A stretch of DNA of 64,000 bases. It comes from Eubacteriaceae bacterium. Its GTDB lineage: Bacteria > Bacillota > Clostridia > Eubacteriales > Alkalibacteraceae. Positions 11,425 to 64,000 of the stretch are shown one piece after another. Numbering within the stretch: the stretch's first letter is position 1; each line of letters starts with the position of its first letter. The stretch covers positions 14,358-78,357 of the forward strand of contig JBMNCR010000089.1 of NCBI GenBank assembly GCA_049366695.1, in the 5' to 3' direction. The position numbers and the translations under genes were made by a program. The notes beneath the pieces were generated by a model. That model was given only the letters and a program-made list of their open reading frames with translations. It was not told where the DNA came from and did no database searches.

Positions 11425-11429
11425 TTATT

Positions 11430-13065: not shown

Positions 13066-13217
13066 ATAATAGCCTTAAATTATAAGTAAAATAATAATCA
13101 AATTAATAAATTAGAATTATCTTGCTCTTGAAATGCATTTATATATAATTTTAGTATTTTATTGATGAATTTACTTTACATATGATAAAAGGAAATAAAA
13201 TTCGGAGGTAAGATAAT

Positions 13218-40734: not shown

Positions 40735-40888
40735 TGTTTAGAACCCCCCCTTATACAAAGTGTATATATTAAAGATGAAAAAGTCAATAATTATGTATAA
40801 TTTACAATTATGTAAATTCATCATAAAATAATAATTGTAAAGCAATTGTGTTTCAAGTAAAAAGAATTAAATATAAGGAGGATAGATT

Positions 40889-44634: not shown

Positions 44635-44642
44635 ACTCATTA

Positions 44643-45281: not shown

Positions 45282-46613
45282 TCATTTGAAATTAGGATGA
45301 GGAATTGTTTCCACATCAAAATTCTCGTTTCTGTCTTCTCGGATATATGGAAATAGAAGAACTTTTGCCTTTATCTTCAATTGCCTTGTTCCAGGGTTTC
45401 CCCATAGGACTTCAACTATTTTTCCTTCAACAGCATAATCTTGATCTATGGTACACACGGAAAGCATTTCCCTGGTTTTAGAAGAGAGCATGCGTCCAGA
45501 GGAGGCACCTACCATCTTATCCCCATCATAAACTGCATCTATGTGCATCCCGCCATTATTACGTACATAATCATAGTCACTTACTAAATCCAAAATATCG
45601 CAACTGTTTCCAGCTTCAAATGCTGTAGCAATAACCTTTAACACATCATTTTTGTCCCAGATGAGATGAACCATAGTATTATGGTGTCCTTCCAATTCTG
45701 CTTTGAGGGCTTCTTTTCCAATAAAATCATGGTCAAATTTAATTAATTTCTCCCAGCCTAAATCAATGGGACTTCTGTAAATCAAATCAGATTTTCTATC
45801 AATACTTCCGCTGAGAACTGGCTTTTCATCAAAGGGTGTTGCAAAGTGTTCGGCGACTTGGGGGATGCTTCCTTCTGCATGGCAGTTGACGTAACCAAGT
45901 CGACCAAGCTCTTGAATGCCATATTCTTTACCAACTTCAAGAAGTTTATTATAAATGACTTCTGCATCCTCTATCTTGCCGTGGACTTCATACCCCAAAG
46001 TACCTGCCATTCCAGTTCTTAAGATGAATACATCTTTTCCTGCAATTTGAGCATCTTTGGTATACATGAATTTTATATCATGTAAATCTTTCTGTGTAGC
46101 AGCCTCAACAATTTCCAAAGAGCGGGGTCCACACATCTGATAAAAGACGCGTTTTTCTTTTGTACTTTCGCTAGTAAAATTATATTTATTTCCGACCATT
46201 TTATTCAGTAGTGCGGGATCAGGGAGGCACATAGAGATAAACTCATCCTCCGAGCGTCTTACTATAATTCCGTCCAATACAAGCTTTCCCTTATCGTTGC
46301 AGATTATAGTATGACGGGCTTTCCCCATAGGGAATTTTCTGAAGGTATTGACACTAACCTCCTCCATCATATCAAGATACTCTAAACCTTTTATATCGTA
46401 GAACATGAACGGATTTAAACCGGCATGCAAATAGCTGGTGTCGTGCCAACTGATTTCTTCATTGACCCATGTATTGTATGCAAAGGGAACAAGTGGCCAT
46501 TGCCCATTATTCATCGGTAACCATTTCCCTTCCGGGCAAACATATACTGTGTTTTTAGGGATGGTATTTGGTATATACGGTGACATCACAAGTTTTTTTG
46601 ATTCATTTTCCAT
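45282..46613 (-). CDS. GcvT-family, tetrahydrofolate-dependent aminomethyl/methyl-transferase, long LigM/DesA-like form (paralog 1)
   Basis: About 443 aa from the ATG at 46613 (RBS AAAGGAG). Motifs RTGMAGTLGYEVHG and IKFDHDFIGKEALKA. The layout resembles the long O-demethylase-type members rather than the roughly 360-aa GcvT. Confidence 0.7.
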   Translation of the reverse strand: MENESKKLVMSPYIPNTIPKNTVYVCPEGKWLPMNNGQWPLVPFAYNTWVNEEISWHDTSYLHAGLNPFMFYDIKGLEYLDMMEEVSVNTFRKFPMGKARHTIICNDKGKLVLDGIIVRRSEDEFISMCLPDPALLNKMVGNKYNFTSESTKEKRVFYQMCGPRSLEIVEAATQKDLHDIKFMYTKDAQIAGKDVFILRTGMAGTLGYEVHGKIEDAEVIYNKLLEVGKEYGIQELGRLGYVNCHAEGSIPQVAEHFATPFDEKPVLSGSIDRKSDLIYRSPIDLGWEKLIKFDHDFIGKEALKAELEGHHNTMVHLIWDKNDVLKVIATAFEAGNSCDILDLVSDYDYVRNNGGMHIDAVYDGDKMVGASSGRMLSSKTREMLSVCTIDQDYAVEGKIVEVLWGNPGTRQLKIKAKVLLFPYIREDRNENFDVETIPHPNFK

Positions 46614-46788
46614 TAGTACAACTCCTTTTAATTTATTAAACAAAACCGGTTTTGTTATTATATATAAGTATAATTCATACCTTCGCTGAAATATATGAAA
46701 TTTAGAACGAAAAAACACCATTGAATTGTGAAAAAATCCAAATCTGTGGTGTTTTTTATATTAAGGAAAAAAACAATCAAATACTATT

Positions 46789-47994
46789 TCAACATTTCTT
46801 ATCAATAAACCGTAATAACTTGAATGAAAACTGCAAATTAAAACAGACTTGTTCATCTGTCAAAAAGATGGAACATAACTCCTCAATTTTATGAATACGA
46901 TAATACAAGGTGTTTTTATGCATATACATATGATCAGCTGTTCTCTGGATATTACGCCCAAATTCAAGATATTTTTCTAGGGTATCTGCCAAACAAGCCT
47001 CATTTTCTTTATCATATTTTTTTAAAATATCGATTACTGGATCATAAAAATCTCGAGGGTTGCATTCTTTTCCGGCGATTTCAAAAAAATGATAGAGAAC
47101 AATATTATCATAGAAGCATAGTGATGAATCGTTATTAAGCTTCTTATTAATCCTTATAGCACTTTTCGCCTGTCTATAGGCATCATCTAGGTATGTAATA
47201 TCATTGAAAACACGACTAACACCAATTTGAATGGAGATTCCCAAAAAGAATTTGTTAATTACCGATATAACAAACTCATGATTTATGCTATTATCGAATA
47301 ATAACAAAATCCCATCGTCATAAATTATACTATAACTAGAATGCAGAGATATATCTAATGATTCTATTATATAATATATAGATAGTCCGGGGCTTCGTGA
47401 TGTATATTCAATTAATATCAGTCGCATTTGATCATAAAAATTGGCCTTAAGACTTGCGATTCGCTCACGCATTTCCGTTTTCGTTACATTATTTTCTATT
47501 AAATCTTTAAATAGACTATAATAAGGGGTCTTTTGCATAGCAGCGGTTCTATCTATATAAAGCATTTCGTATAGCACAGCTTTACATAGAATAACTAATA
47601 GTTCTAGAGTATCATCATGTGTTGGATTATTTTCCACTAATGTCACAATACCTATAACACTGTTTTTATCTCGAATTCGACAACCCAAAAAACGTTTCGG
47701 GAAGAAATCAAACTTCCCGATAACCGGTTTGTCACTGTTAAATATTTGTGTGTAAACACCAGCATTTTCAACCTCTACTAAATCATTGAAAGTCATATGT
47801 CCATCAGGAAATAGTTGATTCCATGTTTCCTGATCTTCAGTCCTAGAATAACTTTTTGCCAAAATCTTTCGGCTTAAATCATAAACAAATATTGGATTAT
47901 TCAAAACCTCGGAAGCAATATTAATAATATGCTGTAAACCGCCTCGTTCAACAAGTGCATTAAGAATTATTGATTTTTTTTCTGAGAACTCCAT
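46789..47994 (-). CDS. PucR/CdaR family transcriptional regulator (paralog 2, short form)
   Basis: C-terminal HTH NIQRTADHMYMHKNTLYYRIHKI; 401 aa. Confidence 0.85.
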   Translation of the reverse strand: MEFSEKKSIILNALVERGGLQHIINIASEVLNNPIFVYDLSRKILAKSYSRTEDQETWNQLFPDGHMTFNDLVEVENAGVYTQIFNSDKPVIGKFDFFPKRFLGCRIRDKNSVIGIVTLVENNPTHDDTLELLVILCKAVLYEMLYIDRTAAMQKTPYYSLFKDLIENNVTKTEMRERIASLKANFYDQMRLILIEYTSRSPGLSIYYIIESLDISLHSSYSIIYDDGILLLFDNSINHEFVISVINKFFLGISIQIGVSRVFNDITYLDDAYRQAKSAIRINKKLNNDSSLCFYDNIVLYHFFEIAGKECNPRDFYDPVIDILKKYDKENEACLADTLEKYLEFGRNIQRTADHMYMHKNTLYYRIHKIEELCSIFLTDEQVCFNLQFSFKLLRFIDKKC

Positions 47995-48333
47995 TTTGCA
48001 TTCTACCTCACTGAATTAATTATAACTTTTGCATTAAAGTATCTAATTACAAAAGTATTGTTGTTTAAAGTTAATCCTATTATATACATTTAATACTGTA
48101 TTCCACAAATAATTCTGATATAATCGTGTCAATGTATTTAGGATAAAATAAAATACTTGTTCTAGATTATCAATTAGGTACCACTGAAAGGTGGTTTGTG
48201 TAACGACTTAATCTTTCCACTGAAGTTTTTTTATCTAAAAGTATTTTCTATGTTTTTGATATTTGTGTAGATTATTGTATATGTGTAGTTCGTCTATAAT
48301 GACTAAAAAGGAAGACTTGTATAGACTCTTTTG

Positions 48334-49068
48334 ACGATGACAATAAAGAGTGATAATTATATAATTATCAAAGAATTTCAAATATCTAATTTAATAATGG
48401 AGGAAAGTACAATGAAAAAATATCCACATTTATTTAGCCCATACCGTATTAAAAACGTAACTTTTAGAAATCGTATTTTCGCGACACCTACTGGAATGAC
48501 TTACCCAGATGAATATACGGGGGAACCAGACTTTAAAACAGTTTTATTTTATGAAAAAAAAGCTCGCGGTGGAGCAGCAAGCGTAACTCTTGGCGAAACG
48601 AAAATTAATGATGTTGATTGTGTACGCAGACCTAATGTAGACCGCATAAGACCTGATTTTGCTAGAATGATTTTACCAAAAAAAAGCTGGGTAAAAGTTA
48701 CAGATGCAATTAAACGTCATGGTGCGGTACCTTCCATTCAATTATCCCATGGAGGGATGTTTAGTGAGCCAGTTTTTATTAATGGGAATCAACCAATAGG
48801 TCCCGTTGATATGGTAAAAGAAAATGGAACAGTCGTTAGAGGTATGAACGAGGACGATATGAAGCGTATCGCTAATGATTTTGCTGAAGCTGCCTGGTGC
48901 GCGCAAGATGCAGGATTCCAAGAGGTAATGCTACACTGTGGACATGGCTGGTTGATTGGACAATTCTTATCACCACATTGGAATACTCGTACAGACGAAT
49001 ATGGCGGGCCAATTGAAAATAGAGCGAAATTTCCACTTATGGTAATTAATGCGGTACGTGAAAAAGTA
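48334..49068 (+). repeat. Segmental duplication, copy B (intact)
   Basis: Collinear with 43888-44634. Confidence 0.85.
48351..48370. promoter_or_regulatory. 20-bp perfect palindrome TGATAATTATATAATTATCA, candidate operator 42 nt upstream of the flavoenzyme start
   Basis: Exact palindrome lying between the divergent PucR paralog 2 and the flavoenzyme gene. It is conserved without change in the decayed duplicate at 43905-43924. Confidence 0.5.
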
Positions 49069-50370
49069 GGAGAAAACTTTATTATTGAAATCCGTATAAG
49101 TGGTGATGAACATCAGGAAAATGGATGGCCAATTGAAGATGTTATTAAATTTGCACATATGGTAGAAGGAAAAGTAGATTTAATTCATATATCTGCCGGA
49201 GACTACCACAATTCTGATCAATACTGTTTTTCAACTGTATTTATGCCCCATAACTGTAATGTTCATGTTGCAGAAGCACTGAAAAAAGGTGGTGTAAAAA
49301 CACCACTCGTAACCGTAGGTTCTATTAACGATCCTGAGGAAATGGAACGATTGATTGCAGAAGGAATTACAGATTTCGTAGCGATTGGCAGAGGTATCTT
49401 AGCAGATTCGGATCTTCCGAAAAAAATTCAATTAGGAAAAGAGGATGATATTCGTCCATGTGTACGTTGCTGTAATTGTATGGGTGGATTATATGATGGA
49501 TATTATCAATGTGATGTCAACCCGGTTGCTGGACAGGAAGCATATTTATTAAGAACACTAGACGTTGAAGAAAGCAAACGTGTATTAGTTGTAGGTGGAG
49601 GACCTGGTGGAATGGTGGCTGCTTTAACAGCTGCAAGTAGAGGACACAAAGTAACTCTGGTTGAGAAAAATGATAAACTAGGCGGAACACTACAATTCTC
49701 AGATATTGATTCTCATAAACAGGATTTAAGAAATTATAAAGATTACTTGATTCATCAGGTAGAAAAACATGGCGTTGATATTCGACTTAATACAGAAGCA
49801 AATATTGCACTGCTGGAGGAACTACAACCACAATCTATTATTGTTGCAACAGGTGCCCAGCCAAGAGTATTAAAGACAAAAGGGGCTGAAAAAGCATGTC
49901 ATGCAATAGATGCATATTACTCTCCTGAAAAAATAGGAAATAAAGTAGTTATGATCGGTGGAGGTTTAATTGGTTGTGAAGTAGCGTTACATTTAGCAGA
50001 ATTAGGTAAAGATGTGACTGTGATAGAAATAATCGATGAATTAGCAAAAGACGCAAATATCATTCATAAAGCATCATTAGTTGAAACTATGGAAATGATG
50101 AAAGATCTGGTACATGGAGTAACTAAAGCACAAGCAAAAGAAATTACGTATGCTGGTGTTACATATGTTGATCAAGATGGAAACGAACAATTCTTAGAAG
50201 CAGATACTGTATTATATGCAATCGGTATGTTACCAAATGACGATATTGTTGAACAGTTACGTGCTTGGGATGGATGGGAAACTTTCGTTCCTATCGGAGA
50301 TTGTACAGGAGCAAGTATTATTCGTAAAGCAATTCATGACGGGTATCACGCTGCAATAGATATTGTTTAA
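48412..50370 (+). CDS. OYE-like FMN / 4Fe-4S / FAD-NAD(P) flavoenzyme (2,4-dienoyl-CoA reductase, 2-enoate reductase, TMADH/DgcA/StcD architecture)
   Basis: LHCGHGWLIGQFLSP OYE motif, Cys cluster CVRCCNCMGG...C, VVGGGPGGMVAA and VMIGGGLIGCEVA dinucleotide folds. ATG at 48412 behind GGAGGAAAG. Confidence 0.85.
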   Translation: MKKYPHLFSPYRIKNVTFRNRIFATPTGMTYPDEYTGEPDFKTVLFYEKKARGGAASVTLGETKINDVDCVRRPNVDRIRPDFARMILPKKSWVKVTDAIKRHGAVPSIQLSHGGMFSEPVFINGNQPIGPVDMVKENGTVVRGMNEDDMKRIANDFAEAAWCAQDAGFQEVMLHCGHGWLIGQFLSPHWNTRTDEYGGPIENRAKFPLMVINAVREKVGENFIIEIRISGDEHQENGWPIEDVIKFAHMVEGKVDLIHISAGDYHNSDQYCFSTVFMPHNCNVHVAEALKKGGVKTPLVTVGSINDPEEMERLIAEGITDFVAIGRGILADSDLPKKIQLGKEDDIRPCVRCCNCMGGLYDGYYQCDVNPVAGQEAYLLRTLDVEESKRVLVVGGGPGGMVAALTAASRGHKVTLVEKNDKLGGTLQFSDIDSHKQDLRNYKDYLIHQVEKHGVDIRLNTEANIALLEELQPQSIIVATGAQPRVLKTKGAEKACHAIDAYYSPEKIGNKVVMIGGGLIGCEVALHLAELGKDVTVIEIIDELAKDANIIHKASLVETMEMMKDLVHGVTKAQAKEITYAGVTYVDQDGNEQFLEADTVLYAIGMLPNDDIVEQLRAWDGWETFVPIGDCTGASIIRKAIHDGYHAAIDIV

Positions 50371-50464: not shown

Positions 50465-51997
50465 TTATTCAGCAATGACAGTTTCATTGTTGATCAGTTT
50501 ATGTAATGTTATGTTCATTAAAATAATCATAGATTGACTCAAAGAATCAGATAATAAGTCTACTTCTATTTCTTCACCTATTTTCTGCACTCGGTATTTT
50601 AAGCTATTCCGATGCAGACATAATAGATTAGAAGCTTTATGTAGACTTCTTTCGTTCGTCAAATATATATATACGCTGTATAAGAAATCTCGTTCAGTTG
50701 CATTGCCTTTTTCCCATAAGAGTAGGAAAGGTTGATAAATAAAAATATCATTCAACTCACTTGAATGGATAACATCTAATAATATTGGAAATGCATTATC
50801 ATTAAAAGCTGATATTCTCTTTTCTGAATACTGCATGACAATCTTGGCTTGTTTGTATGCGAGATTCAATAAAGTAACATCGTTAAATGGATTCGATATC
50901 CCTACTTTCAAATCTAGATTCTGAAAGAGTTTTTTATCTTCTGAGTCGTTTTGTTTGTTTTGTTTGTCAGATTTTAAGATGATGATCCGATTTTTATAAT
51001 AAAAAATCATGGCTTTATCAAACTCAAGCTGTAACGATGAAATATATTTTCTAAATATTTCTCCGGTAAGTATCAGATCAGAGTTTAAATCACACATGTA
51101 AAGTCGGAAGTATTCCCTTTTTAGCCAAGGATACTGACTCAAAAAATAGTTAAGATGACGTTGCTGATAGTCTTGCAAATTAATAAGCTGTACAAGAATT
51201 TGAGGCGCGATTTCTACGTTGCTTTGATCCCTTGTTTGTAACAGTAAAGAGTTATTAATAAGGTTAGCAATATGTAGCAGCCAGGAAATTTCTTCTGAGT
51301 CAAACCCACCAGTAAATGAAACAGAACTAATATTACCAATAAATTTTCTCTTACTATAGATAGGTAAAATAATATGATCCATACCATCTCTTTTAAAAAC
51401 AAAAAATGATTCTCTATTCTGAATCGTTTGGTTAATATTTTGCATTTCCTCATGTGAATAAATACGCAAATCAATGGCGCCATTTTCAAGAACATTTCTC
51501 CATACTAAGCTTTCCGAAACGTCGGTTCCAACATCAATGAATTCAACCAACTGATAAGAAGTGTCAAATAAAGCAATTGAGTTTTTGATTCGAATGGACT
51601 TTATTTTTAACAAAGCATTTATTGATTTGGACTCAAAAACTATCTGCCTAATTGATTCATTATTCGAATTAAACGCTTGAAGCCATTCTAGGACTTTGAT
51701 ATAGACTGATTCTTTTGTAATTTCTTCCATGAGGATTATTGCTTGCTGGTTTAATCGTTTAATCTCCTTTGACTCTAGCGAACCAATAATAATAAATGAA
51801 TAGTTCAAGGAATTAGTAAAATGGTTGAGATGGTCCTGCATTGTACAAACAATCAAAGTATCTGTTTTTGGCTTAAAGCCGTTTTCTTGAAACAAGGTTA
51901 CTGATGTAAGAGACAGTTGAACTTTGGTTTCAGTTTCAATTATATGCAAGTTCATTCCATTGAATATATCTATCATAAGGTGTAGATTAAAATTCAT
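50465..51997 (-). CDS. PucR family transcriptional regulator (paralog 3)
   Basis: C-terminal HTH SLHKASNLLCLHRNSLKYRVQKI. I prefer the ATG at 51997 (MNFNLHLMIDIF.., RBS AAAGGA), by analogy with paralogs 1 and 4. Confidence 0.8.
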   Translation of the reverse strand: MNFNLHLMIDIFNGMNLHIIETETKVQLSLTSVTLFQENGFKPKTDTLIVCTMQDHLNHFTNSLNYSFIIIGSLESKEIKRLNQQAIILMEEITKESVYIKVLEWLQAFNSNNESIRQIVFESKSINALLKIKSIRIKNSIALFDTSYQLVEFIDVGTDVSESLVWRNVLENGAIDLRIYSHEEMQNINQTIQNRESFFVFKRDGMDHIILPIYSKRKFIGNISSVSFTGGFDSEEISWLLHIANLINNSLLLQTRDQSNVEIAPQILVQLINLQDYQQRHLNYFLSQYPWLKREYFRLYMCDLNSDLILTGEIFRKYISSLQLEFDKAMIFYYKNRIIILKSDKQNKQNDSEDKKLFQNLDLKVGISNPFNDVTLLNLAYKQAKIVMQYSEKRISAFNDNAFPILLDVIHSSELNDIFIYQPFLLLWEKGNATERDFLYSVYIYLTNERSLHKASNLLCLHRNSLKYRVQKIGEEIEVDLLSDSLSQSMIILMNITLHKLINNETVIAE

Positions 51998-52144
51998 AAC
52001 GATCATCCTTTGTTCGAAAGTGAGAAAAAGAACTAAATTTTTCTCCAGTTTTACCAATGCTATTTTTTTTGCTGGCAAGTATACTAATATTATAATCATA
52101 TATATAATTTATTAAAAGTCATATTTAATGAAAGGAAGATTTTT

Positions 52145-53467
52145 ATGTCGAATCAAAATGAAAGAGATGTTATCGGTTACATGCATCAAACCCCAGATGT
52201 TCACTCTTATGCTAATGTATTTGGTAGTCTAAAACCTTGGGAAATTGACCCTTGGCAGGAGGCATCCATGTCATGGAAGGAATCCTCTTACATTCATACA
52301 GGAATTTCAAACTTTGGTGTTCGTTTTAAAGGGTCAGATGCTTTAGAGTTTCTGAGATATGCATCAACCAATAAAGTCGATAATTGGAAAATCAATCGTG
52401 GTAAACACTTGGTTTTTTGTGATGAAAATGGTTTGATTGCTACCCATGCATTAGTTAACCGCTTTGATGAAGATGAGTTTATTATGTACGCCGCAAATCC
52501 TCTTCAAATCTTTAAATTATTGAAACAAAAAGAATATAATATGGAAATGACAATGCCTGACTTCTTTATTTACCAGATGTCAGGTCCGCTGTCCCTTACA
52601 ATTATTGAAAAAGCCCTTGGTCAAGACTTGCATGATGTAAAGTTTTTAGAAAACAGAAAAGTGTACTTTCCACAGTTAGGCATTGAGGTTGAAGTTCAAC
52701 GTATTGGAATGTCAGGCACTTTAGCTTACGAAGTGAAAGGAGAGGGCAAGAGCGGTCCGGATGTTTATGATGCTCTCTATGAAGCCGGAAAACCTATGGG
52801 ATTAAAACGTCTTGGTTGGAGAACCTATATGCTCAATCACACAGAAGGAGGTTACCCTCAAGGAAATGGCAGTTTCGCTTACTCTGTTGATTATGATCCT
52901 GAATTAACCCCTTATGGTGGTGAGGCTTTGAATATGGGTAGTGTGGATCCAAAAGATTTACGTGCAAGAATGCGTACACCTTTTGAAGTTGATTGGGCTT
53001 GGATGGTTGATTTTAATAAAGGTGACTTCGTTGGGAAAGAAGCGTTAGAAAAAGAACGTGATAATCAAAAACGTAGGATTGTCACACTAAAATGGAATGT
53101 AGATGATATTGTAGATATTTATCGCTCACTTTATGAAAAGGATGAAGAAGCATATAAATACATGGAATATCCAATAGGCTATTTACAGCCAAGTGGTGGA
53201 AATGCTGACCTCGTATTAGATAAAGAGGGCAATCTTATCGGCATATCAAGTATTGTTGCTTATTCTAATTATTATCGTGAAACTATTTCGCAGTGTATTA
53301 TGGATATTGACAAGATTGAAGAAGGCAAAGAAGTTATCGTTCAATGGGGAGATTACGGACACCGTATCAAAAACGTCAGAGCAGAAATAGTTCGATACCC
53401 TTATTCAACATTAATAGAGAACAAAGACTACGATTTAAGTACTGTGCCAAAAGGAACAGAAGTGTAA
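52145..53467 (+). CDS. GcvT-family, tetrahydrofolate-dependent aminomethyl/methyl-transferase, long LigM/DesA-like form (paralog 2)
   Basis: 440 aa. Motifs RIGMSGTLAYEVKG and DFNKGDFVGKEALEK, plus the C-terminal segment KRRIVTLKWNVDDIVDIYRSLY..EEAYKYMEYP, characteristic of the long O-demethylase-like subgroup. Confidence 0.7.
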   Translation: MSNQNERDVIGYMHQTPDVHSYANVFGSLKPWEIDPWQEASMSWKESSYIHTGISNFGVRFKGSDALEFLRYASTNKVDNWKINRGKHLVFCDENGLIATHALVNRFDEDEFIMYAANPLQIFKLLKQKEYNMEMTMPDFFIYQMSGPLSLTIIEKALGQDLHDVKFLENRKVYFPQLGIEVEVQRIGMSGTLAYEVKGEGKSGPDVYDALYEAGKPMGLKRLGWRTYMLNHTEGGYPQGNGSFAYSVDYDPELTPYGGEALNMGSVDPKDLRARMRTPFEVDWAWMVDFNKGDFVGKEALEKERDNQKRRIVTLKWNVDDIVDIYRSLYEKDEEAYKYMEYPIGYLQPSGGNADLVLDKEGNLIGISSIVAYSNYYRETISQCIMDIDKIEEGKEVIVQWGDYGHRIKNVRAEIVRYPYSTLIENKDYDLSTVPKGTEV

Positions 53468-53906: not shown

Positions 53907-54350
53907 ATGACGTTAATAGACAAAAGAGAAGTAAGAAAATTGATGAAGGAAGGTAAGTAAAAAGATATGACAGTTATTCAAAGGTATATAGTGCACGTAA
54001 TTCGTAATTCAACGAGATATTTATCTTATAAAGATAGAAAAGTCTTTGTATCTGATTTAAAGCCCGTATATACAGCTATTGATGAAACCCAAACATTAGA
54101 AGCTCTATCAAATCTTGAAGAAAAATAGGGAGAAAAATATTATATTGCTATAAAACTTTGGAAAGATCATTGGAATGAAATAGCCACTATGTTTAAATAT
54201 CCTTAAGATATAAGAAGACTAATATATACAACAAATGCAATTGAAAGCTTTAATAGGCAGCTAAGGAAAGTAACTAAGTCAAAGAGCGTTTTTCCAACAG
54301 ATGAATCACTTTAAAAAATGTTATATTTAGCTTCATTAGTTAAGATTTGA
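53907..54350 (+). mobile_element. IS256-family (Mutator-like) transposase pseudogene, internally deleted, with three nonsense codons
   Basis: VIQRYIVHVIRNS..KDRKVFVSDLKPVYTA...EEK*GEKY...[52 protein letters not shown] matches the conserved C-terminal third of IS256 transposases. Confidence 0.75.
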
Positions 54351-56482: not shown

Positions 56483-56526
56483 TAACAAGTTGATAATCCG
56501 CAAGAATTAACTTAATACTAAAGATT

Positions 56527-56573
56527 AACAGCCTCCTTTTTACAGATGATTTACCTGTAAAAAGGAGGCTGTT
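56527..56573 (+). terminator. Long perfect hairpin (19-bp stem) after PucR paralog 4
   Basis: AACAGCCTCCTTTTTACAG atgatttac CTGTAAAAAGGAGGCTGTT with a weak T tract downstream. Confidence 0.6.
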
Positions 56574-57105
56574 ATTGTTATTCAATTTATTCGGGTTCCA
56601 ATATGGAAATGCTTATTTTTATAATTTATAGGCTATGAATTTAATTCCAAGCTGATATGAACTCCAGGAAGTGGTGTTTTATAAATTAGTGTAGGATTAC
56701 ATCAAGTTACATTAAACATCTTTCTTTCATACCCAATAGCTACAAAATGTAGGTGTCAAGTCAAAATAATCGGTATAACTTGAAGGATTTACAATATTTA
56801 AGATGAGATGTAGTATAAATTTAAACTAAGCAAACTACAATTGCCGTCAACAATAGTAGATTTGCTTTGTAAATTTTTATTTTAAAGGAGGGATAAAAGA
56901 CAATATTGGAACATGGATTTCTGTAGACATCGGTTCTGTGTCCTTGAAAATCATCCACAAGTATAGACCCCATGGGAAAACTCATGTCCCACAAGTAACT
57001 TATGGCATTACCCTAGAGCAATATCCACAAGGATGTTGCAGCAGCATACATGGCTGGGCTGGAGGGTAAACAAGCAGTAAAAATTTTTTATGGAGGTGTT
57101 TAATT

Positions 57106-57921
57106 ATGATTTGTAATCGATTTGAAAATAAGGTCGTATTAGTCGTTGGCGCGGGTGCCGGTATGGGCGAAGCAACTGCATTGCAATTTCTCAAAGAGGG
57201 TGCAAAAGTTATAGCTCTTGACATGTACAAGGATCGACTGGATCGACTTGAGGGGCAGGCTAATGGATTGAATGGTAGTCTTGAGATGTACCTTGGCGAC
57301 ATCACAGATGTCAAAACGGTGGAAGGCGTAGTCGACGTCATCACAAGGAAATATGGCACACTGGATTGTCTTGCTCATGTGGCAGGAGTTATGGATTTTA
57401 TGCTTACACCTGACATTTTGACTGATGAGATGTGGGATCGTGTCATGGATATCAACGTCAAGAGTGTATGGCGCATGGTCAAAACGGCTATGCCCCTTCT
57501 GAAAAACCATGAGGGTGATGCTGGGAGTGTTGCTATTGTTTCTTCACTCGGTGGATATGTGGGATCCTCATCTGGTACTGCATATATTGTTTCTAAGCAC
57601 GCTGTGGAGGGACTCATGAAGAATCTCGCTTTCTCTTATAGAGAGAATAATGTCCGTATAAACTGCGTAGCACCAGGTGCAATTGCTTCCGAAATTGTTG
57701 GTACTTCCGCACGTATGTTCCCCGAGTTAGAATATGATGCAGGATTATGCCCTGAAGGTATGGAAATCTATTTAGAAAATGGTATTGGACTAGTAAGACC
57801 AGATGATGCCTATGGAGAATCACAGGATATCGCTGATGCCATAACTTTCCTGTGCTCCCAGCAGGCCAAATTCATCAATGGGTCAAGTCTCATTGTTGAC
57901 GGTGGTTGGTACAGTGCATAA
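57106..57921 (+). CDS. Short-chain dehydrogenase/reductase (SDR)
   Basis: VVGAGAGMGEA cofactor motif, YIVSKHA catalytic YxxxK and NCVAPGAI. Clearly higher GC than the backbone. Confidence 0.9.
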   Translation: MICNRFENKVVLVVGAGAGMGEATALQFLKEGAKVIALDMYKDRLDRLEGQANGLNGSLEMYLGDITDVKTVEGVVDVITRKYGTLDCLAHVAGVMDFMLTPDILTDEMWDRVMDINVKSVWRMVKTAMPLLKNHEGDAGSVAIVSSLGGYVGSSSGTAYIVSKHAVEGLMKNLAFSYRENNVRINCVAPGAIASEIVGTSARMFPELEYDAGLCPEGMEIYLENGIGLVRPDDAYGESQDIADAITFLCSQQAKFINGSSLIVDGGWYSA

Positions 57922-57989
57922 ACACCAGGATCAAACGGCATTATGTGTAAAATTGACATTATCAACTATTTTAGAAAAGGAGAAGGAAA

Positions 57990-59228
57990 ATGAATAAAAA
58001 AATAGATAAACGACTTCCAAGAGAAACCGGCAAAGACGTGATGCCCGAGCATGCGGCGATTAAAACTCCATGGGAAAAGCTGGTTTCATATCATGATGCG
58101 GCACACTACGCAAATCGTTACAATGCAGTAATCAGCGCCGCCATGTTGCAAGCATTACGAATTCTCGTACCCGACTATGTAGAAAGAGTTAAGGCTATGT
58201 GCAAAAATGCCTATGACAGAGTAAAAACACCATTTCTTACCCCTTACGGCGAAATGATGAAAGACGATCTCAATACCCATCCGTTTTTCAGGGGTAACTT
58301 CGTCGGTGCCCAAGTCGGCGACTTCGGCGACGAGTGCCTGCTTATGTGCGGTCGTGTCAATGACTTCGGCACTTACCGTGTGGAAAAGGAACTGGATACC
58401 TGTCCCTGGGATATCTTAGGATCTGAGATGGGTCGCGCCACCACCCAGTCGCTTTTAGGTAGCGCCGATGGACTAGCAACCTGGCTGCCATCTGGACCCA
58501 AACTTGATTATCATATGGTTGAAGCAAAGTGCTGTGGTGATCTTCACTGCCGAGTCGTGGCTGAAAGTCGCGATAAATTCCCAATGCCGCCCCATGAGCA
58601 GTGGGAATGTTATGGACCTATTGCCACAGACGATCAGATCAAATTCACGCCCGAAGAGGATTGTATGAAGGAACCCATGGTATTTCAAGAGGATTGCAAC
58701 TATAAATATGTTAACGGCACGTGTATGGAGAGTGATTCCAAGAGCCTATATCCAATGACTTATCAGTCGAATGGGACGTGCTATATCACACCGACAATCA
58801 ATGACTTAATCAATGATGGCACGGTTGACGAAAAATTTGCTGATCATGTGATTAAATGCGTATGCGAAGCTGCGGGCAAGGCTGCCTTTGGCGAGTTCTA
58901 TTCGAAGGAAGGCCTACGTAGCTGGCTCGGTGTTCCCCGGGACATCGACGACGGACGCGTCATGGGCGCCCATATTGAGATGTATCTGCAAAGCATGATA
59001 GCCGACTACACAGTCGAAGCATTCAATGCTGACGAGGTTATTTATGTAATTGACCGCACCAATCTGTCCTTCGCAGGCCCGAGATATATAGACGCATTGA
59101 TATCCACATGGTACGGCATGACTAAAACCCTTGTCAATGCTCAGTGGGCGCTGTGGGAAGAAGCTGGAGAAACCTCTGAGGATCAACTCCGTATCAAGAT
59201 TGCCAAGAAAGTTGACAAGTTATGTTGA
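57990..59228 (+). CDS. Cysteine-rich protein of unknown function (412 aa)
   Basis: Good RBS (AAAGGAGAAGG). Sits between the SDR and GcvT genes with 68-nt and 36-nt gaps. Cys motifs: TCPWD, KCCGDLHCRVV, WECYG, CNYKYVNGTC and KCVCEAAG. It bears only a loose resemblance to ATC-hydrolase-like proteins (xCPxxx...GDxxCxxxx). Confidence 0.7.
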   Translation: MNKKIDKRLPRETGKDVMPEHAAIKTPWEKLVSYHDAAHYANRYNAVISAAMLQALRILVPDYVERVKAMCKNAYDRVKTPFLTPYGEMMKDDLNTHPFFRGNFVGAQVGDFGDECLLMCGRVNDFGTYRVEKELDTCPWDILGSEMGRATTQSLLGSADGLATWLPSGPKLDYHMVEAKCCGDLHCRVVAESRDKFPMPPHEQWECYGPIATDDQIKFTPEEDCMKEPMVFQEDCNYKYVNGTCMESDSKSLYPMTYQSNGTCYITPTINDLINDGTVDEKFADHVIKCVCEAAGKAAFGEFYSKEGLRSWLGVPRDIDDGRVMGAHIEMYLQSMIADYTVEAFNADEVIYVIDRTNLSFAGPRYIDALISTWYGMTKTLVNAQWALWEEAGETSEDQLRIKIAKKVDKLC

Positions 59229-59264
59229 CGATTATATTTCATATAAGAAAGGAGCATACCGTTT

Positions 59265-60281
59265 ATGTATAAAAATGTATACAAATACGATGAAATGAAG
59301 CGTACCGAGCATATGGCTGTCCGAGAAACGGTGGGTTGGTACTTATGGACACATCAGCTTTTGGAGGTCAAAGGAGAAGATGCCACAGCTTTTCTGGATA
59401 GGATGTTTGCAAACCCCATCGCCAACCTAAAAATCGGCGGCGCAAGATATACAACCATGCTAAATGAGAAAGCGGAAATCATTGACGATGTAGTGGTATT
59501 CCGAATGGAAGAGCAGAGATTCTGGATTTCAACCCTATTCCTGACCAATCTAACTGATTGGATTTCCAATCATAAAAACGGTTATAAGGTAAAATCCTCC
59601 GATATTACTGAACAGTACCATATGTTCGCTGTGCAGGGGCCTAGAGCAAAAGATCTTATCAACGCAATGGTGGAGAACAACGTGGACGATCAGCGTTTCT
59701 TTACAATTAGGGACAATAAAATTGATGGTATATGTGTCAAAATTAACCGAGGCGGTTTCACCGGCGAGAAATTCGGCTATGAGATATATGTTGCACTGGA
59801 AGATCTGCCCGCCATGGAGACCAAGCTGAAAGTCTGCGGCGAATCTTTCGGCGCCATCGAAGTAACGGATATACAAATCATGGCCTGGACACTGCCCACG
59901 GAAGCCGGCTTCTATTACATGCGTGACCTGATGTACACCAACCCGTTTGAGGTGGGTCTAGATCGCGGTATTAGCTGGGATAAGGATTTTATCGGAAAAG
60001 AGGCACTGCTGAAGATCAAAGATGAAGGTCCATCCCGCGAGATGGTCGGATTTACTATAGACGAGGACGACGTACATATCAACGCCAAGGATTTGGGCGG
60101 TCCCGGTACAGCTGTCATGCTGAACGGCGAAGAGATCGGTCGTGTGTCTAAATTTAATTATAGCTTTGTACTGGAGAAGAATATTGGCTATATCCTTGCC
60201 AAGAAGGGTGCAGTGAAGCCGGGCGATCATGTTGCCATCAAGTCTTATGATGCCGTCATTACGGACAAGGTTTTCATCTAA
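59265..60281 (+). CDS. GcvT-family aminomethyltransferase-like protein, short form (paralog 3)
   Basis: 338 aa with HMAVRETVGWYLW.., AVQGPRA, NRGGFTGEKFGYEIY and WDKDFIGKEALL, the classical GcvT fold motifs. Confidence 0.8.
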   Translation: MYKNVYKYDEMKRTEHMAVRETVGWYLWTHQLLEVKGEDATAFLDRMFANPIANLKIGGARYTTMLNEKAEIIDDVVVFRMEEQRFWISTLFLTNLTDWISNHKNGYKVKSSDITEQYHMFAVQGPRAKDLINAMVENNVDDQRFFTIRDNKIDGICVKINRGGFTGEKFGYEIYVALEDLPAMETKLKVCGESFGAIEVTDIQIMAWTLPTEAGFYYMRDLMYTNPFEVGLDRGISWDKDFIGKEALLKIKDEGPSREMVGFTIDEDDVHINAKDLGGPGTAVMLNGEEIGRVSKFNYSFVLEKNIGYILAKKGAVKPGDHVAIKSYDAVITDKVFI

Positions 60282-60414
60282 GCGCCATTGAGCTGAGTAA
60301 AACGGGGGGCTGTGTCCATGGCGAAATGTTATAGTGTGATACAGCCCTTTCATTATCAACAATATTTGCCATATGCGCCAAGAATATTAAAGTAGTTTGT
60401 CTGGAGGTATTGTG

Positions 60415-60540
60415 ATGAACAAGAAAATTACAGTTATTACCTGCGGTAACAGCAGGTTGGGAATGGCGTCGGCTCTGTGCCTTGGCTCGGAAACGCGTGG
60501 AGTATGTTTCGACACTTGGCAAGTAAAGTGTCGATATTGA
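60415..60540 (+). pseudogene. Truncated, degenerate SDR gene start
   Basis: MNKKITVITCGNSRLGMASALCLGSE.. mimics the SDR TGxxxGxG opening with the glycines replaced, and stops after 41 codons. Confidence 0.5.
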
Positions 60541-60642
60541 AATGATACAAGGTGATTTAGTGAATAGACGATTTGATGAATTAGTGACCAAATTTTTACA
60601 TTATTAAAGGCACTATATAAAATATTGAAATAAGGAGTAAAT

Positions 60643-61923
60643 ATGATGAATGAAAAAATACTAGCATCAAATAAGATGAGGAGTAACACAATATTTTTCA
60701 TGTTAGGTTTGGGTATGCTGCTTGCAATGATTCCTTATTTAGGACCTGCAGTAGTTCTCCCAACATTAATGGTTGATCTTTCTATACCAAGTACTGCACT
60801 TGGATACGTCATTTCAATTTATTTGATAGTTAGTGGAATATGTATGTTTATAGGTAGCTATATACAAGAGAAGATTGGTTATCTCAATACTTATCATTTA
60901 GGAAATATCTCAATAACACTCGGTATCCTTGTTTCCGCAATTGCCCCTAACTTCCTTGTTTTTATGATAGGACGTGGGCTTTCTGGCTTTGGTTTTGGTC
61001 TTCTTTCAGCCGCCGGTGGTCCGATTCGAGCCATTTGGTTCAAAGATAAAAAATATGCACTGGCAAACAGCTTCAATCAAATTATGTCATGTGTTGGCAT
61101 TAGTCTTGCATTCGTCCTTATGACTAGCCTGTTGGCCATAACTGGATCATGGCGTAATGTTATGATGATCTATGCCAGCGGTTCTATAGTATATACAGTA
61201 GCATGTTTTTTCGTTATGAAGTATCCCGTAGGTGTCAAAGAAGCTCTCGAGCAGAAGAGAGAGGGAATTAAGTCTGGACAGATTGCAAAGCAAGAAAACA
61301 ATCTCATGCGTCCTTTCAAGTTCAAGGACTACTGGCTCATTTTAATTCACAACATTGTATATATTGCAGCCAATACCGCACTCCTCACCTATATGGTCGT
61401 ATACTTCAATCAAGAAGCAGGTATTTCTGTATCTGCTGCAGCATTGATCACAAGTCTGTTAACTATCTGTCAGATCATTGGCGCGTTGGTGGGAGGCTTT
61501 CTTGTCGCCCAGACTGGACGTAGGAAGATTTGGGTTATTATTTTTAGTGTTACCTACTCCTTGGCATCAATTACCATGATTTTAGCAGGCGGGAATTATT
61601 TTATAGTTATTAGCATGGCTGTAATTATCGGTATTTGTGCCTTTGCAAGAATTCCGGGCATCAGTATGTATTATGTTGAGTTGACTGATACATATGACCC
61701 ATCTCTGGTTGGACCTGCGGTTGCTATGGTAAACGGCATTCCAATGCTCGCTAATATTATTATCAGCGGACTTATTGGTGCTATGGTATTCAGTCCATTG
61801 GGATACGGTAAAACTCTTATTATCGTCTATGCAATGTGTTTAGCTAGTACTATCCCGCTATTTTGGCTAAAGAACATCGGACCTCGCGCTAAAAATGAAA
61901 TTCGTAACACTGAAAACGTTTAA
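60643..61923 (+). CDS. MFS transporter
   Basis: 426 aa with about 12 hydrophobic helices and a GRGLSGFGFG loop motif. Confidence 0.85.
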   Translation: MMNEKILASNKMRSNTIFFMLGLGMLLAMIPYLGPAVVLPTLMVDLSIPSTALGYVISIYLIVSGICMFIGSYIQEKIGYLNTYHLGNISITLGILVSAIAPNFLVFMIGRGLSGFGFGLLSAAGGPIRAIWFKDKKYALANSFNQIMSCVGISLAFVLMTSLLAITGSWRNVMMIYASGSIVYTVACFFVMKYPVGVKEALEQKREGIKSGQIAKQENNLMRPFKFKDYWLILIHNIVYIAANTALLTYMVVYFNQEAGISVSAAALITSLLTICQIIGALVGGFLVAQTGRRKIWVIIFSVTYSLASITMILAGGNYFIVISMAVIIGICAFARIPGISMYYVELTDTYDPSLVGPAVAMVNGIPMLANIIISGLIGAMVFSPLGYGKTLIIVYAMCLASTIPLFWLKNIGPRAKNEIRNTENV

Positions 61924-62202
61924 TTCATAATTGCTTATTGATTTATTGTCTTCTATGCATAATAAAAGAACTCTAAGCTTAAGCGTACTGAATCAGCAAT
62001 AACTGACATAAATAGAAATTATCTAATCGGAGTATAATAAGACTACAATTTTGAGTATAAACACATTATTAAGCAAAGGTTGATTGTACAAAGTATTATA
62101 ATAATTTTTTAATTATCTATTAGACATGTATTTTAAATTCTTACGTTATTGAAGAATACATTTTGCTTTAATATAAAATACTAAATTTTAGGAGGTAACA
62201 AC

Positions 62203-62424
62203 ATGGCAATAACACGTAAAAGTAAGATCAAAGAAATTGTTGCAAATACTGATGCACTGGCAATTGTAAACAAATATTTACCGGGAATAGACCCAACTGA
62301 ACCAAAATTAAAACCAACAATGGGGATGTCCCTAAAAGCATTATGCGCATTCCCTCAGACAGGTATCAGTAAGGACAAAGCAAAGGAATTGTTTGAGGAG
62401 CTGGAAGAGGCAAACATCGAGTAG
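62203..62424 (+). CDS. Small hypothetical protein (73 aa)
   Basis: Strong RBS (TAGGAGGT) and a hairpin downstream at about 62470-62505. No motif recognised. Confidence 0.5.
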   Translation: MAITRKSKIKEIVANTDALAIVNKYLPGIDPTEPKLKPTMGMSLKALCAFPQTGISKDKAKELFEELEEANIE

Positions 62425-62599
62425 TTCATATATGAATGAGACGCTCTAATAGTATACATAATTCTCTTTTCCATGGCATTGGACTGCCGTGGAAGAGAGT
62501 TAACTTTATTAGCAATCGTTGATAAGTATAATTCACTCCTTTACAGATGTATATGAAATTCAGTATGAAAAGACCGTTTATTTGTAAAAAAGTCCAAAC

Positions 62600-62870: not shown

Positions 62871-63039
62871 CCTAAAATAACTTTTTGCCAGAATCTTTTG
62901 GCTTAAATCATAAACTATATTGGATTATCCAAAACTTGGGAAGCAATATTAATAATATGCTGTAAACCGCCTCGTTCAACGAGTGCATTAAGAATGATTG
63001 ATTTTTTTTCTGAGAACTCCATATTGAAATTTACCTCGC
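62871..63039 (-). repeat. Duplicate of the 5' end (start codon plus about 48 codons and about 15 nt of leader) of PucR paralog 2
   Basis: Aligns by eye with 47842-48011 with few mismatches and a 1-nt deletion. The start codon complement is at 63020-63022. It abuts the IS3 remnant. Confidence 0.8.
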
Positions 63040-63058
63040 TTTTTTAATGGTGCTAAAA

Positions 63059-64000
63059 TTACAGATAGTTGCATATCAAACATGAAAACCACAGCTGCAT
63101 TCGGTACTTTTCACTTAATTGACGGACATCCATCTCTATAATAGCAGTGATTTTTTCCAGTCTGTAAGTAAGGGTATTGCGGTGCATAAAAAGTTCTTTT
63201 CCCGTTTGAGCGGTATTACAGCCGTTATATAGATAGATTCTCAGGCAATGGACGAAGTCTGTATCGTATGTGTTGTCATGATTGCGAAGGCGTAAAATAT
63301 TCGCATGACACATGCTTTTTAGACTTGTAGAATTACTCATTAGGCTGATTATATGTGGGAAATAATAATCAGCAAAATCCCATAGGATATTTTCTGATTT
63401 GGCTGTTTCTCCCTCATAAAATGCTGCTTTGCTTTGGATATAATAATATTTTAAATCACTGAAACGGTTGAAAAAATTGCTGCATCCACAATGTAGTCCA
63501 AGCTTAGATAAAAGCTCTACTAATTTTTTTTCGTACTTATCATTATAGTTCCCTTTTAATTGTCTTCTTATGACGATAATGGAATTTTCATATAAAAATA
63601 TAATAACATCTTCCTGCATCCTTTTTATGCGGTATAGGCAAAAATCTGCTTGACTATCACTAAGTTCCTTTCCACTAGGGTAAGCCATGGTATAAACACG
63701 AAAATTGTCATGACTACTCCAACCACGTTCATTCAGGTGGTAGCTGATAATTTTCTCATCTACGGGGAATCCTTTAAGGAGTTTTTCTAAATAGTAGGTT
63801 ACGACTTCATTTGAACCTTTAAATTCTATGCTGGAGGATATTGCTAGCTCCATCACATCTTTTATCAGCTGCAGAAGGGATATTTGACCTTGGGTAAAGG
63901 GAGTATTTATGCTGGTCGTTGCAATAAAAGCAAAAAGCTTACCATCAAGGTACAAATTTACCATTAAGTCAGAATACTTCGTGTAGGGAGAGCCATAGGG
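63059..64000 (-). CDS. PucR family transcriptional regulator (paralog 5); 5' end lies outside the window
   Basis: C-terminal HTH NTAQTGKELFMHRNTLTYRLEKI. The frame remains open beyond the ATG at 63964 to the window edge. Confidence 0.8.
   Translation of the reverse strand, partial: PYGSPYTKYSDLMVNLYLDGKLFAFIATTSINTPFTQGQISLLQLIKDVMELAISSSIEFKGSNEVVTYYLEKLLKGFPVDEKIISYHLNERGWSSHDNFRVYTMAYPSGKELSDSQADFCLYRIKRMQEDVIIFLYENSIIVIRRQLKGNYNDKYEKKLVELLSKLGLHCGCSNFFNRFSDLKYYYIQSKAAFYEGETAKSENILWDFADYYFPHIISLMSNSTSLKSMCHANILRLRNHDNTYDTDFVHCLRIYLYNGCNTAQTGKELFMHRNTLTYRLEKITAIIEMDVRQLSEKYRMQLWFSCLICNYL

Follow-up and report, generated by a model that had tools for sequence, protein, structure and literature searches.

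We have analyzed a 64,000-nucleotide (nt) stretch of DNA from a Eubacteriaceae bacterium (contig JBMNCR010000089.1 of assembly GCA_049366695.1, positions 14,358 to 78,357; hereafter the window), focusing on a block of five genes at 56.95–62.45 kb that differs in base composition from its surroundings. The block encodes a short-chain dehydrogenase/reductase (SDR), a 412-residue protein of an undescribed family (X412), a short folate enzyme of the GcvT family with 338 residues (GcvT338), a transporter of the major facilitator superfamily (MFS), and a 73-residue protein; a PucR-type regulator is encoded immediately upstream. We propose, with moderate confidence, that the block was acquired horizontally and forms a substrate-inducible catabolic cassette in which X412 would release a one-carbon (C1) unit from its substrate and GcvT338 would trap this unit on folate. 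The cassette as such is real, widespread, mobile, and uncharacterized.

X412 and GcvT338 form a recurrent gene pair

Relatives of X412 were collected from 185,579 species genomes, which yielded 151 relatives and 80 loci that were kept, and from metagenomes, which yielded at least 459 contigs, many of them from human gut and fermenter samples. The carriers are mostly gut Clostridia. The first three loci examined shared the order regulator, X412, GcvT338, and one or more SDRs, and the pairing at the center of this arrangement is nearly fixed: in 75 of the 77 informative loci, X412 has a GcvT338-type gene on its 3′ side in the same orientation, and the median spacing is about 23 nt. The exceptions to this adjacency are loci L022 and L051, and in L056 the order is reversed. 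Of 170 loci, many of them on short contigs, 152 have GcvT, 147 have an SDR, and 118 have PucR, while no further family occurs in more than about 15. The module is thus a four-gene unit of regulator, SDR, X412, and GcvT, and the conserved SDR–unknown–GcvT synteny put forward for testing by the initial annotation of the block, which had been made from the sequence alone, is very strong. Clustering of the open reading frames (ORFs) within ±8 kb at the 170 loci revealed no additional recurrent family that might hint at the substrate; it showed homologues of the 73-residue protein, folate enzymes at a few loci, and lineage-specific housekeeping genes.

The two proteins have also evolved together. 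Their pairwise-identity matrices are correlated with r = 0.90, and their mean identities are 0.63 (X412) and 0.64 (GcvT), compared to 0.32 for the regulator. We infer that X412 and GcvT338 interact physically. A Treponema sp. metagenome-assembled genome (MAG) from a termite-gut-type sample carries two X412–GcvT pairs in tandem (L084, 8001-15082), whose proteins are 62%/71% and 47%/57% identical to those of the window; an SDR lies between the pairs, an MFS gene follows them, and an AraC-type regulator replaces PucR. The order SDR–X412–GcvT–MFS of the window is shared by L004, which is the closest locus with this gene order, whereas relative to L001, L093, and L094 the window SDR has shifted upstream. 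On the JGI contig whose GcvT is closest to that of the window (L094, 87%), a glycyl-radical enzyme and its radical-SAM activase (3346-6419) are convergent to the cassette, a neighborhood that may be coincidental.

Composition and origin of the block

The G+C content is 0.42 over the block and 0.46 over its three core genes (SDR, X412, and GcvT338), compared to 0.28 in the backbone. The sharp rise had been noted from hand counts of single 60-nt lines at 25201-25260, 57106-57165, and 58321-58380, which are exact (0.233, 0.433, and 0.567), and it is borne out both by 1-kb windows and by the G+C content at third codon positions (GC3). In 1-kb windows, the values at 57–62 kb are 0.43, 0.48, 0.45, 0.40, and 0.40, whereas the 39 windows of the backbone (1–39 kb) have a G+C content of 0.283 ± 0.030 with a maximum of 0.352. 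GC3 is 0.39 for the SDR, 0.50 for X412, 0.53 for GcvT338, 0.36 for the MFS gene, and 0.37 for the 73-residue ORF, which places these genes 8.6–16 standard deviations above the backbone value of 0.175 ± 0.021 (n = 21 genes). The block is a mosaic, since the regulator gene has a host-like G+C content of 0.32 and the MFS and 73-residue genes are intermediate at 0.39. The region from 39 to 64 kb is mildly elevated as a whole, at 0.33.

The high G+C content is not intrinsic to the X412 and GcvT genes, because in 60 other genomes the G+C content of this core tracks that of the host: it spans 0.38–0.61, and the core departs from its flanks by only +0.009 on average and by −0.07 to +0.10 at the extremes. 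The window, where the core exceeds its flanks by about +0.17, falls beyond these limits. The nearest relatives reside in hosts of higher G+C content. L001 is 85% identical in nucleotide sequence over X412–GcvT and has host flanks of 0.53 G+C, and L004 is 74% identical over SDR–X412–GcvT with host flanks of 0.45.

Mobile contexts are found in other genomes. In L086 (ENA ERZ21862665 ctg8805c, 3845-13277), the genes PucR–SDR–X412–GcvT together with a 536-residue large serine recombinase split feoB between its FeoB_N/FeoB_Cyto and FeoB_C/Gate parts; this insert is an integrative element of about 7.3 kb that carries the cassette as cargo. In L001, the cassette adjoins TraG and primase genes. In the window itself, the sole trace of mobility is a remnant of an IS256-family insertion sequence (IS) 2.7 kb upstream; there are no flanking direct repeats at 53–64 kb, and no integrase, tRNA, or other Rfam match was found at the borders of the block. 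Searches with tblastn of the sequenced plasmid and phage collections gave no match to X412. Taken together, the G+C and GC3 excess, the comparison of core and flanks, the hosts of the nearest relatives, and the mobile contexts elsewhere support the earlier suggestion that the block was acquired horizontally from a higher-GC donor.

GcvT338 retains the catalytic and folate motifs of T-proteins

GcvT338 passes the Pfam cut-offs for both domains of its family, namely, GCV_T (PF01571, 143.5 bits versus 25.6) and GCV_T_C (PF08669, 34.3 bits versus 25.9). It fails both curated models of the glycine cleavage T-protein (TIGR00528/PRK00389, 127 bits versus 235.85 and 158 versus 300), and its best NCBIfam match is to the GcvT subfamily (158 bits, cut-off 300). 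It also falls below the equivalog cut-offs for DmdA (116/410 bits), LigM (64/580), DesA (74/800), and Tdm (105/1100). The hidden Markov model (HMM) scores place it nearer GcvT, SoxA, and dimethylglycine dehydrogenase (DMGDH) than LigM or DesA. The sub-family is comparable in size to that of X412, with 770 clusters at E ≤ 1e-40, and the 120 best listed are all 316–355 residues long.

The best match in the PDB is the T-protein from T. maritima (1WOO, E = 1.7e-38), which has the same fold. The alignment begins at residue 35, GcvT338 has 338 residues compared to 364 in 1WOO, and the first ~20 residues are missing. In T-proteins, the Asp of the IIDD motif is catalytic; this motif is kept in GcvT338 (AEIIDDVVVF opposite GGIIDDLVVY in 1WOO), as is the folate motif (FTGEK opposite YTGED), and both IIDD and TGE are at least 95% conserved among 73 family members. 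By contrast, the FDVSHMG sequence of T-proteins is replaced by YLWTHQ, which belongs to a conserved sub-family pattern, YxWTHQ. GcvT338 thus resembles T-proteins in fold, domains, and motifs, and like them it presumably forms 5,10-methylenetetrahydrofolate (methylene-THF) from a C1 unit that a partner protein supplies. It differs in its scores, in its N-terminus, and in its surroundings, where genes for the H, P, and L proteins of glycine cleavage are absent and the partner is the unrelated X412.

Several known enzymes couple a C1-releasing module to a GcvT-fold tetrahydrofolate (THF) module: dimethylglycine oxidase (DMGO) and DMGDH, the alpha subunit of heterotetrameric sarcosine oxidase, and the trimethylamine N-oxide demethylase Tdm. 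Their GcvT domains are among the PDB matches of GcvT338, and in size Tdm (DUF1989 plus a GcvT domain, about 790 residues; PDB 9Q5A) is similar to X412 and GcvT338 combined (412 + 338 residues). In contrast to these enzymes, the putative releasing module X412 is a separate polypeptide, has neither a FAD/DAO domain nor DUF1989, and matches them neither in sequence nor in fold. The dimethylsulfoniopropionate demethylase DmdA, the aryl O-demethylases LigM and DesA, and SesA, reportedly a sesamin methylene transferase and a stand-alone GcvT-family enzyme, likewise remove methyl or methylene groups in a THF-dependent, catabolic manner and feed them into C1 metabolism. Unlike GcvT338, which is nearly always paired with X412, they act without a partner. 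From its sequences, the system would work like the known couples of C1-releasing and GcvT-fold modules, while falling outside each of them and outside the stand-alone transferases.

Folate genes adjoin related cassettes

Genes of the folate branch of C1 metabolism are found next to the cassette at six loci, with assignments confirmed by Pfam. In L023 and L035, the genes for X412, GcvT, two SDRs, Fhs, FchA, and FolD form operons on one strand. In L004, the MFS gene is followed after about 1.9 kb by Fhs and FchA in the same orientation, whereas in L078 and L081 FolD and FchA adjoin the regulator, and L056 has Fhs. FolD acts on methylene-THF. Because of the linkage to FolD and the retained Asp motif of T-proteins, we favor 5,10-methylene-THF over 5-methyl-THF, and it is the likely product of GcvT338. 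A methylated or aminomethyl compound had been suggested as a possible substrate; the evidence favors a C1 unit at the oxidation level of formaldehyde and names no compound. Together with the synteny, this linkage agrees well with the logic of oxidoreductase, unknown component, and folate-dependent C1 acceptor that had been suggested for the block.

The cassette of Alkalibacter rhizosphaerae (CP071444, L093) consists of PucR, X412, GcvT, SDR, and a 74-residue protein, followed by a divergent gene of the PanB family. PanB, 3-methyl-2-oxobutanoate hydroxymethyltransferase, represents a family of THF-dependent hydroxymethyl-transfer enzymes. The paralogue in question (12350-13240, same strand) scores 84 bits versus cut-offs of 207–272, and only its C-terminal half matches. 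We considered pantoate or ketopantoate as the substrate of the cassette, and rejected this candidate in view of the divergence of the PanB-like gene and its occurrence at a single locus; it is kept as a lead. Rfam gave no riboswitch or other RNA that might point to the ligand, neither across the window nor, at E ≤ 1, between 56.4 and 62.7 kb.

X412 belongs to an undescribed family with a putative V4R-like domain

Homologues of X412 form 588 clusters of ~410–415 residues with 55–100% identity in a word-indexed search; those that are named are all called “hypothetical protein”, and one cluster, from a Eubacteriaceae MAG, is 100% identical. When 1.84 billion representatives were searched exhaustively with a profile, only 146 X412 sequences, mostly fragments, and no link to a known family were found. 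X412 has no match in Pfam or NCBIfam at default thresholds. When 49 members were compared with Pfam at E ≤ 10, nothing consistent appeared and the V4R HMM (PF02830) hit none of them, and a profile search of the PDB sequences gave nothing at E ≤ 10.

The AlphaFold2 model of X412 is confident (pLDDT 87.7, pTM 0.88) and shows two α+β halves. Foldseek found no PDB entry at E ≤ 1e-3 and no counterpart of the whole fold. Weak matches (E of 2e-3 to 3e-2) were obtained to Bet3, to H-NOX, and to the aromatic-sensor domains of MopR and DmpR, with a query-normalized TM-score of ~0.25, which in the model would correspond to about one domain. For MopR (5KBH) and DmpR (6IY8), the E-value is ~0.03, and the target-normalized TM-scores are 0.47 and, for the 468-residue DmpR chain, ~0.2. 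The two halves are apparently not repeats of each other, as an internal duplication was rejected when hhalign aligned the N- and C-terminal halves with a probability of 0.2%.

The sensor domains were pursued by profile comparison, using the A domain of XylR from plasmid pWW0 (V4R at residues 141-188) and a profile of 29 homologues. Against the X412 superfamily profile, hhalign gave a weak match with 76% probability (P = 2.2e-5, 54 columns) for the XylR profile and 60% for XylR alone. It pairs X412 residues 139-197 with the V4R domain, hairpin GCGDxxC(R)IV included, and C148 and C187 of X412 face the conserved Cys149 and Cys183 of XylR. In MopR, the equivalent Cys and Glu residues bind zinc beside the phenol pocket. 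The model and the profile comparison thus weakly suggest that X412 has a V4R-like Cys/Glu metal-hairpin domain, which we infer binds a metal through its conserved residues. The likeness to the A domains of XylR, DmpR, and MopR (PF02830, PF06505) nonetheless covers only about 55 of the 412 residues. X412 also contains another domain that has no match, lacks an AAA+ or DNA-binding output, and is the operon partner of an enzyme.

Residue conservation leads in the same direction. C138, E178, C187, and about 20 other residues of X412 are invariant down to 26% identity, and C148 and H186 are nearly so. Of 208 distinct sequences, 204 have Cys at position 148 (window 58431-58433) and only four have Gly, namely, the window protein and its three closest database relatives (P0002-P0004). 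All four have Cys at position 181 (58530-58532), a position that is nearly always Gly in the rest of the family; a single further sequence combines Cys181 with Cys148. The A. rhizosphaerae copy shows the same Gly148/Cys181 pair. The pattern looks like the relocation of a metal or redox ligand, although only a single evolutionary event underlies it. We also considered that the Cys of the C-terminal sequence DKFC might serve as a swinging thiol, in the manner of the lipoyl arm of the H-protein, and dropped this idea because only 62% of the GcvT-linked X412 members end in Cys. For two distant relatives (L090 and L091, one of them from a high-GC contig), the neighboring genes look by eye like NTF2/SnoaL-like and xylose-isomerase-like TIM-barrel proteins; as these relatives are not followed by a GcvT gene, the fold family may have GcvT-independent roles.

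Regulator, dehydrogenase, and accessory proteins

The PucR/CdaR-type regulator, omitted from the initial annotation, is a conserved fourth member of the module and probably its inducer-sensing regulator. A PucR homologue lies at most 1.7 kb upstream of X412, mostly in divergent orientation, in 57 of the 64 loci with enough upstream sequence, and these regulators share only ~32% identity among themselves.

The SDR carries a Gly-rich motif (VVGAGAGMG) and the YxxxK motif (YIVSK), and scores below every NCBIfam equivalog cut-off. Its orthologues in L001, L004, and L093 are 69–72% identical. The commonest SDR partner at other loci is of a different type, with ~302 residues and a conserved N-terminal extension, and is encoded directly upstream or downstream; a type with ~252 residues is found at some loci, and the type with 271–275 residues occurs in the window, L001, L004, L086, L093, and L094.

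The MFS transporter and the 73-residue protein are accessory. The former had been taken as an importer belonging to the core logic of the block, but it is present in only ~5 loci. Its best NCBIfam match is TIGR00893, a D-galactonate transporter subfamily, at 90 bits versus a cut-off of 395, which puts it nearest to the anion:cation-symporter type; the homologue in L001 is 68% identical in protein and 72% in DNA sequence. The 73-residue protein is not the orphan it had seemed. Homologues occupy the equivalent position in L093 (55% identity) and L001 (68%), and more distant ones (~25–30%) lie beyond the regulator in at least 12 further loci. Since the family is fused as a C-terminal domain to a 335-residue SDR in L061 (762-1769), it appears to be functionally tied to the dehydrogenase step.

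Layout and borders of the block

The features of the block and its borders are collected in Table 1. The gene coordinates given previously are exact, as are the gaps of 68 nt between the SDR and X412 genes and 36 nt between the X412 and GcvT genes, and the family calls (SDR, GCV_T with GCV_T_C, and MFS_1, with no Pfam or NCBIfam family for the 412- and 73-residue proteins) hold as well. A Shine-Dalgarno sequence precedes each of the five genes, and the terminator scan found no terminator-like site on the plus strand at 57.1–62.4 kb. The hairpin that follows the 73-residue gene is likely to be the 3′ end of the transcription unit.

Table 1 Features of the block and its borders (window coordinates)
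Feature	Position	Strand	Evidence
IS256-family (Transposase_mut) remnant	53961-54125 + 54207-54311	+	PF00872, 31 and 29 bits, profile positions 248-298 and 328-361
PucR/CdaR-type regulator, 539 residues	54863-56482	+	HTH_30 PF13556, 79 bits, residues 440-498
Terminator-like hairpin 3′ of regulator gene	56521-56579	+	25-nt arms, 92% complementary; terminator scan flags minus strand
Start-less open frame, 69 codons, at left GC boundary	56860-57066	+	Frame listing
Classical SDR, 271 residues (“type A”)	57106-57921	+	adh_short PF00106, 152 bits; adh_short_C2, 164 bits
X412, 412 residues, undescribed family	57990-59228	+	No Pfam/NCBIfam match; AlphaFold2 model; profile comparison
Putative V4R-like Cys/Glu hairpin in X412	residues 139-197		C138, E178, C181/C182, H186, C187
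GcvT338, short GcvT-family (aminomethyltransferase-fold) folate enzyme, 338 residues	59265-60281	+	Pfam GCV_T + GCV_T_C
Truncated second SDR start, pseudogene remnant	60415-60540	+	41 codons, then stop; blastx
MFS transporter, 426 residues	60643-61923	+	MFS_1, 112 bits
73-residue accessory protein, recurrent small family	62203-62424	+	Homologues at related loci; no Pfam family
Terminator-like hairpin 40 nt after 73-residue gene	62464-62499	+	15-pair stem (7 G-C), T-rich tail
Duplicated PucR N-terminus fragment, right-edge debris	62918-63043	-	94% identity over 35 residues to PucR gene 46789-47994

The debris that was said to bracket the block is only partly real. The IS256 remnant is confirmed and lies upstream of the regulator gene, while for the IS200 remnant at 53.6 kb and the IS3 remnant at 62.6–62.8 kb no supporting frame or Pfam match was found. 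The dead SDR start between the GcvT and MFS genes is confirmed by blastx, with 63% identity over 27 residues to the N-termini of SDRs with 312 (L018) and 323 (L028) residues, both of which belong to the cassette in those genomes. The start-less frame near 56.9 kb does exist, and the G+C content climbs from 0.28 to 0.43 across it. It has no match in Pfam or among the proteins of related loci, and may be either donor-derived debris or a 5′ leader.

At the right edge, beyond the position given for the IS3 remnant, the PucR fragment sits just downstream of a 301-residue PucR ORF (63059-63964, minus strand), which aligns only to the C-terminal part (approximately residues 219-515) of the full-length PucR regulators of the window. 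The two together suggest recombination among the many PucR paralogues of the window.

Other C1 cassettes in the window

The region at 39–64 kb is an array of PucR-regulated C1-harvesting cassettes with pseudogene debris. At 39181-42538, a PucR gene is divergent from genes for a corrinoid-binding protein (B12-binding_2 + B12-binding, 164 residues) and a URO-D-family methyltransferase (384 residues), by their domains a classical corrinoid methyltransferase cassette. Two genes of the GcvT family that resemble LigM and DesA (479 and 440 residues) each lie beside a PucR-type regulator, at 45282-47994 and 50465-53467. The 440-residue protein matches the vanillate/3-O-methylgallate and syringate O-demethylase models of NCBIfam with 148 and 145 bits, below cut-off, and both genes look like candidates for THF-dependent aryl O-demethylases of this strongly AT-rich anaerobe. 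The debris includes a frameshifted copy (44036-44565, 82–90% amino acid identity) of residues 50-223 of the old yellow enzyme (OYE)/pyridine-nucleotide-disulphide flavoprotein encoded at 48331-50370, and a stand-alone B12-binding domain fragment (44616-45008) that shares 38% identity with the corrinoid protein encoded at 40889-41383.

Proposed mechanism and alternatives

In the mechanism that we propose, the PucR-type regulator would sense the inducer, and X412 and the short GcvT would act as an obligate two-protein unit with the SDR alongside. A small-molecule substrate would bind to the V4R-like Cys/Glu domain of X412, probably a zinc domain, and X412 would release from it a C1 unit at the formaldehyde oxidation level. 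GcvT338 would capture this unit on THF as 5,10-methylene-THF, from where it would enter the folate branch through FolD, FchA, and Fhs, or the Wood–Ljungdahl pathway. The SDR would carry out an alcohol/ketone step, by which it would either prepare the substrate for C1 release or convert the product. Both the formaldehyde-level chemistry and the catabolic direction are predictions. The sub-clade of the window would add an MFS transporter of the anion-symporter type and the 73-residue accessory protein. As most loci lack a transporter, the substrate may cross the membrane unaided, and the anion-type MFS of the window clade means that it may carry a carboxylate.

Several observations weigh against this proposal. 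Folate genes are adjacent in only the six loci, and distant X412 relatives (33–35% identity) are not followed by GcvT. The SDR varies in subtype and position and ~14% of the loci show none, so its role may be peripheral. The link to V4R is weak by each of the three comparisons (no Pfam HMM match, Foldseek E of 2e-3 to 3e-2, hhalign 76%), and V4R domains are, to our knowledge, sensors and not catalysts. The window cassette may not be fully functional, because it is rearranged and contains a dead SDR start. Finally, we found no publications on X412 or on this gene set.

A bolder form of the proposal, which we put forward tentatively and regard as possible, is that X412 is the founder of an enzyme family with a catalytic V4R-type fold, which would cleave a formaldehyde-level C1 unit from a diet or plant compound without O2, flavin, or corrinoid and channel it to a GcvT-like subunit. 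Methylenedioxy, hydroxymethyl, and N- or S-linked C1 groups are examples of what might be cleaved.

Alternatively, GcvT338 could transfer the group on its own, in the manner of DmdA, LigM/DesA, and SesA, with X412 as a non-catalytic carrier or solubilizer, a sensor, or an allosteric partner for a hydrophobic compound. Such stand-alone demethylases exist, two LigM-like genes are present in the same window, and all that X412 resembles are sensor and ligand-binding domains (the V4R domains of MopR, DmpR, and XylR, H-NOX, and Bet3). On the other hand, X412 is as well conserved as its partner enzyme and far better than the regulator (mean identities of 0.63, 0.64, and 0.32 for X412, GcvT, and regulator), it has many invariant charged and polar residues, and a dedicated PucR or AraC regulator is already there. 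GcvT338 is furthermore shorter than enzymes of the LigM/SesA type and scores far below their models. We therefore consider this alternative unlikely.

The reversibility of GcvT-type reactions raises the question of direction: methylene-THF might be used to hydroxymethylate or methylate a small molecule, as by PanB or ThyA, with the SDR reducing the product. The divergent PanB-family gene after the A. rhizosphaerae cassette would fit a biosynthetic role. The context is a catabolic one, however, with an array of PucR-regulated methyl and C1 cassettes at 39–64 kb. The cassette itself is compact, mobile, and inducible, at some loci it includes an importer, and no nonribosomal peptide synthetase, polyketide synthase, or tailoring genes recur in the 170 loci, all of which makes the biosynthetic direction improbable.

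We attach an equally low probability to the idea that the cassette is a decaying passenger that no longer works as a unit in this genome. The signs of decay are the truncated SDR start, the SDR moved upstream relative to L001, L093, and L094, the flanking debris (IS256 remnant, PucR fragment, and start-less frame), and the different, host-like G+C content of the adjacent regulator gene. They are offset by five intact ORFs with good ribosome-binding sites, by X412 and GcvT338 sequences close to those of their nearest relatives (87% and 85% identity, respectively) and without frameshifts, and by L004, which has the same gene order up to the MFS gene.

Even less probable is a lipoate-independent analogue of glycine cleavage, in which X412 would replace the P- and H-proteins and pass an aminomethyl group to the T-like protein. 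While GcvT338 is matched best by true T-proteins among both HMMs and PDB entries, its catalytic Asp motif is kept, and X412 has conserved cysteines, X412 shows neither pyridoxal phosphate nor lipoyl signatures, and its C-terminal Cys is far from universal among the GcvT-linked members. No gcvH, gcvP, or lpd recurs in the 170 loci, and GcvT338 lacks the N-terminal segment of T-proteins.

Least credible of all is that the G+C jump stems from an assembly chimera in a MAG: the window does match a MAG contig (P0001 and P0328, 100% identical; Eubacteriaceae MAG, 91.5 kb), but lower-GC sequence is found on both sides of the block, the right flank holds the 94%-identical copy of another window gene, and the boundaries are intergenic, with host-like regulatory hairpins.

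Implications

Having no annotation, solved structure, or literature, yet a nearly fixed, T-protein-like partner, X412 offers enzyme discovery a well-defined target. Among the carriers are many Blautia and other Lachnospiraceae of human gut metagenomes, Lachnospiraceae of animal gut, and the cultured Alkalibacter rhizosphaerae, Qiania dongpingensis, and Blautia schinkii DSM 10518. With cultured carriers and a predicted partner, cofactor (THF), and product (methylene-THF), screening for the substrate is therefore feasible.

If our proposal is correct, gut and sediment anaerobes have, in a compact and mobile unit of four genes, a new way to harvest C1 units for folate metabolism and acetogenesis, which would widen the set of known couplings between GcvT-fold modules and C1-releasing chemistry. 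We know of two anaerobic routes of this kind, namely, corrinoid methyltransferase systems and stand-alone GcvT-family demethylases; should X412 indeed have a catalytic V4R-type fold, it would provide a third anaerobic route of C1 units into folate and the Wood–Ljungdahl pathway. The cassette may account for some of the unassigned transformations of dietary or xenobiotic compounds in the gut.

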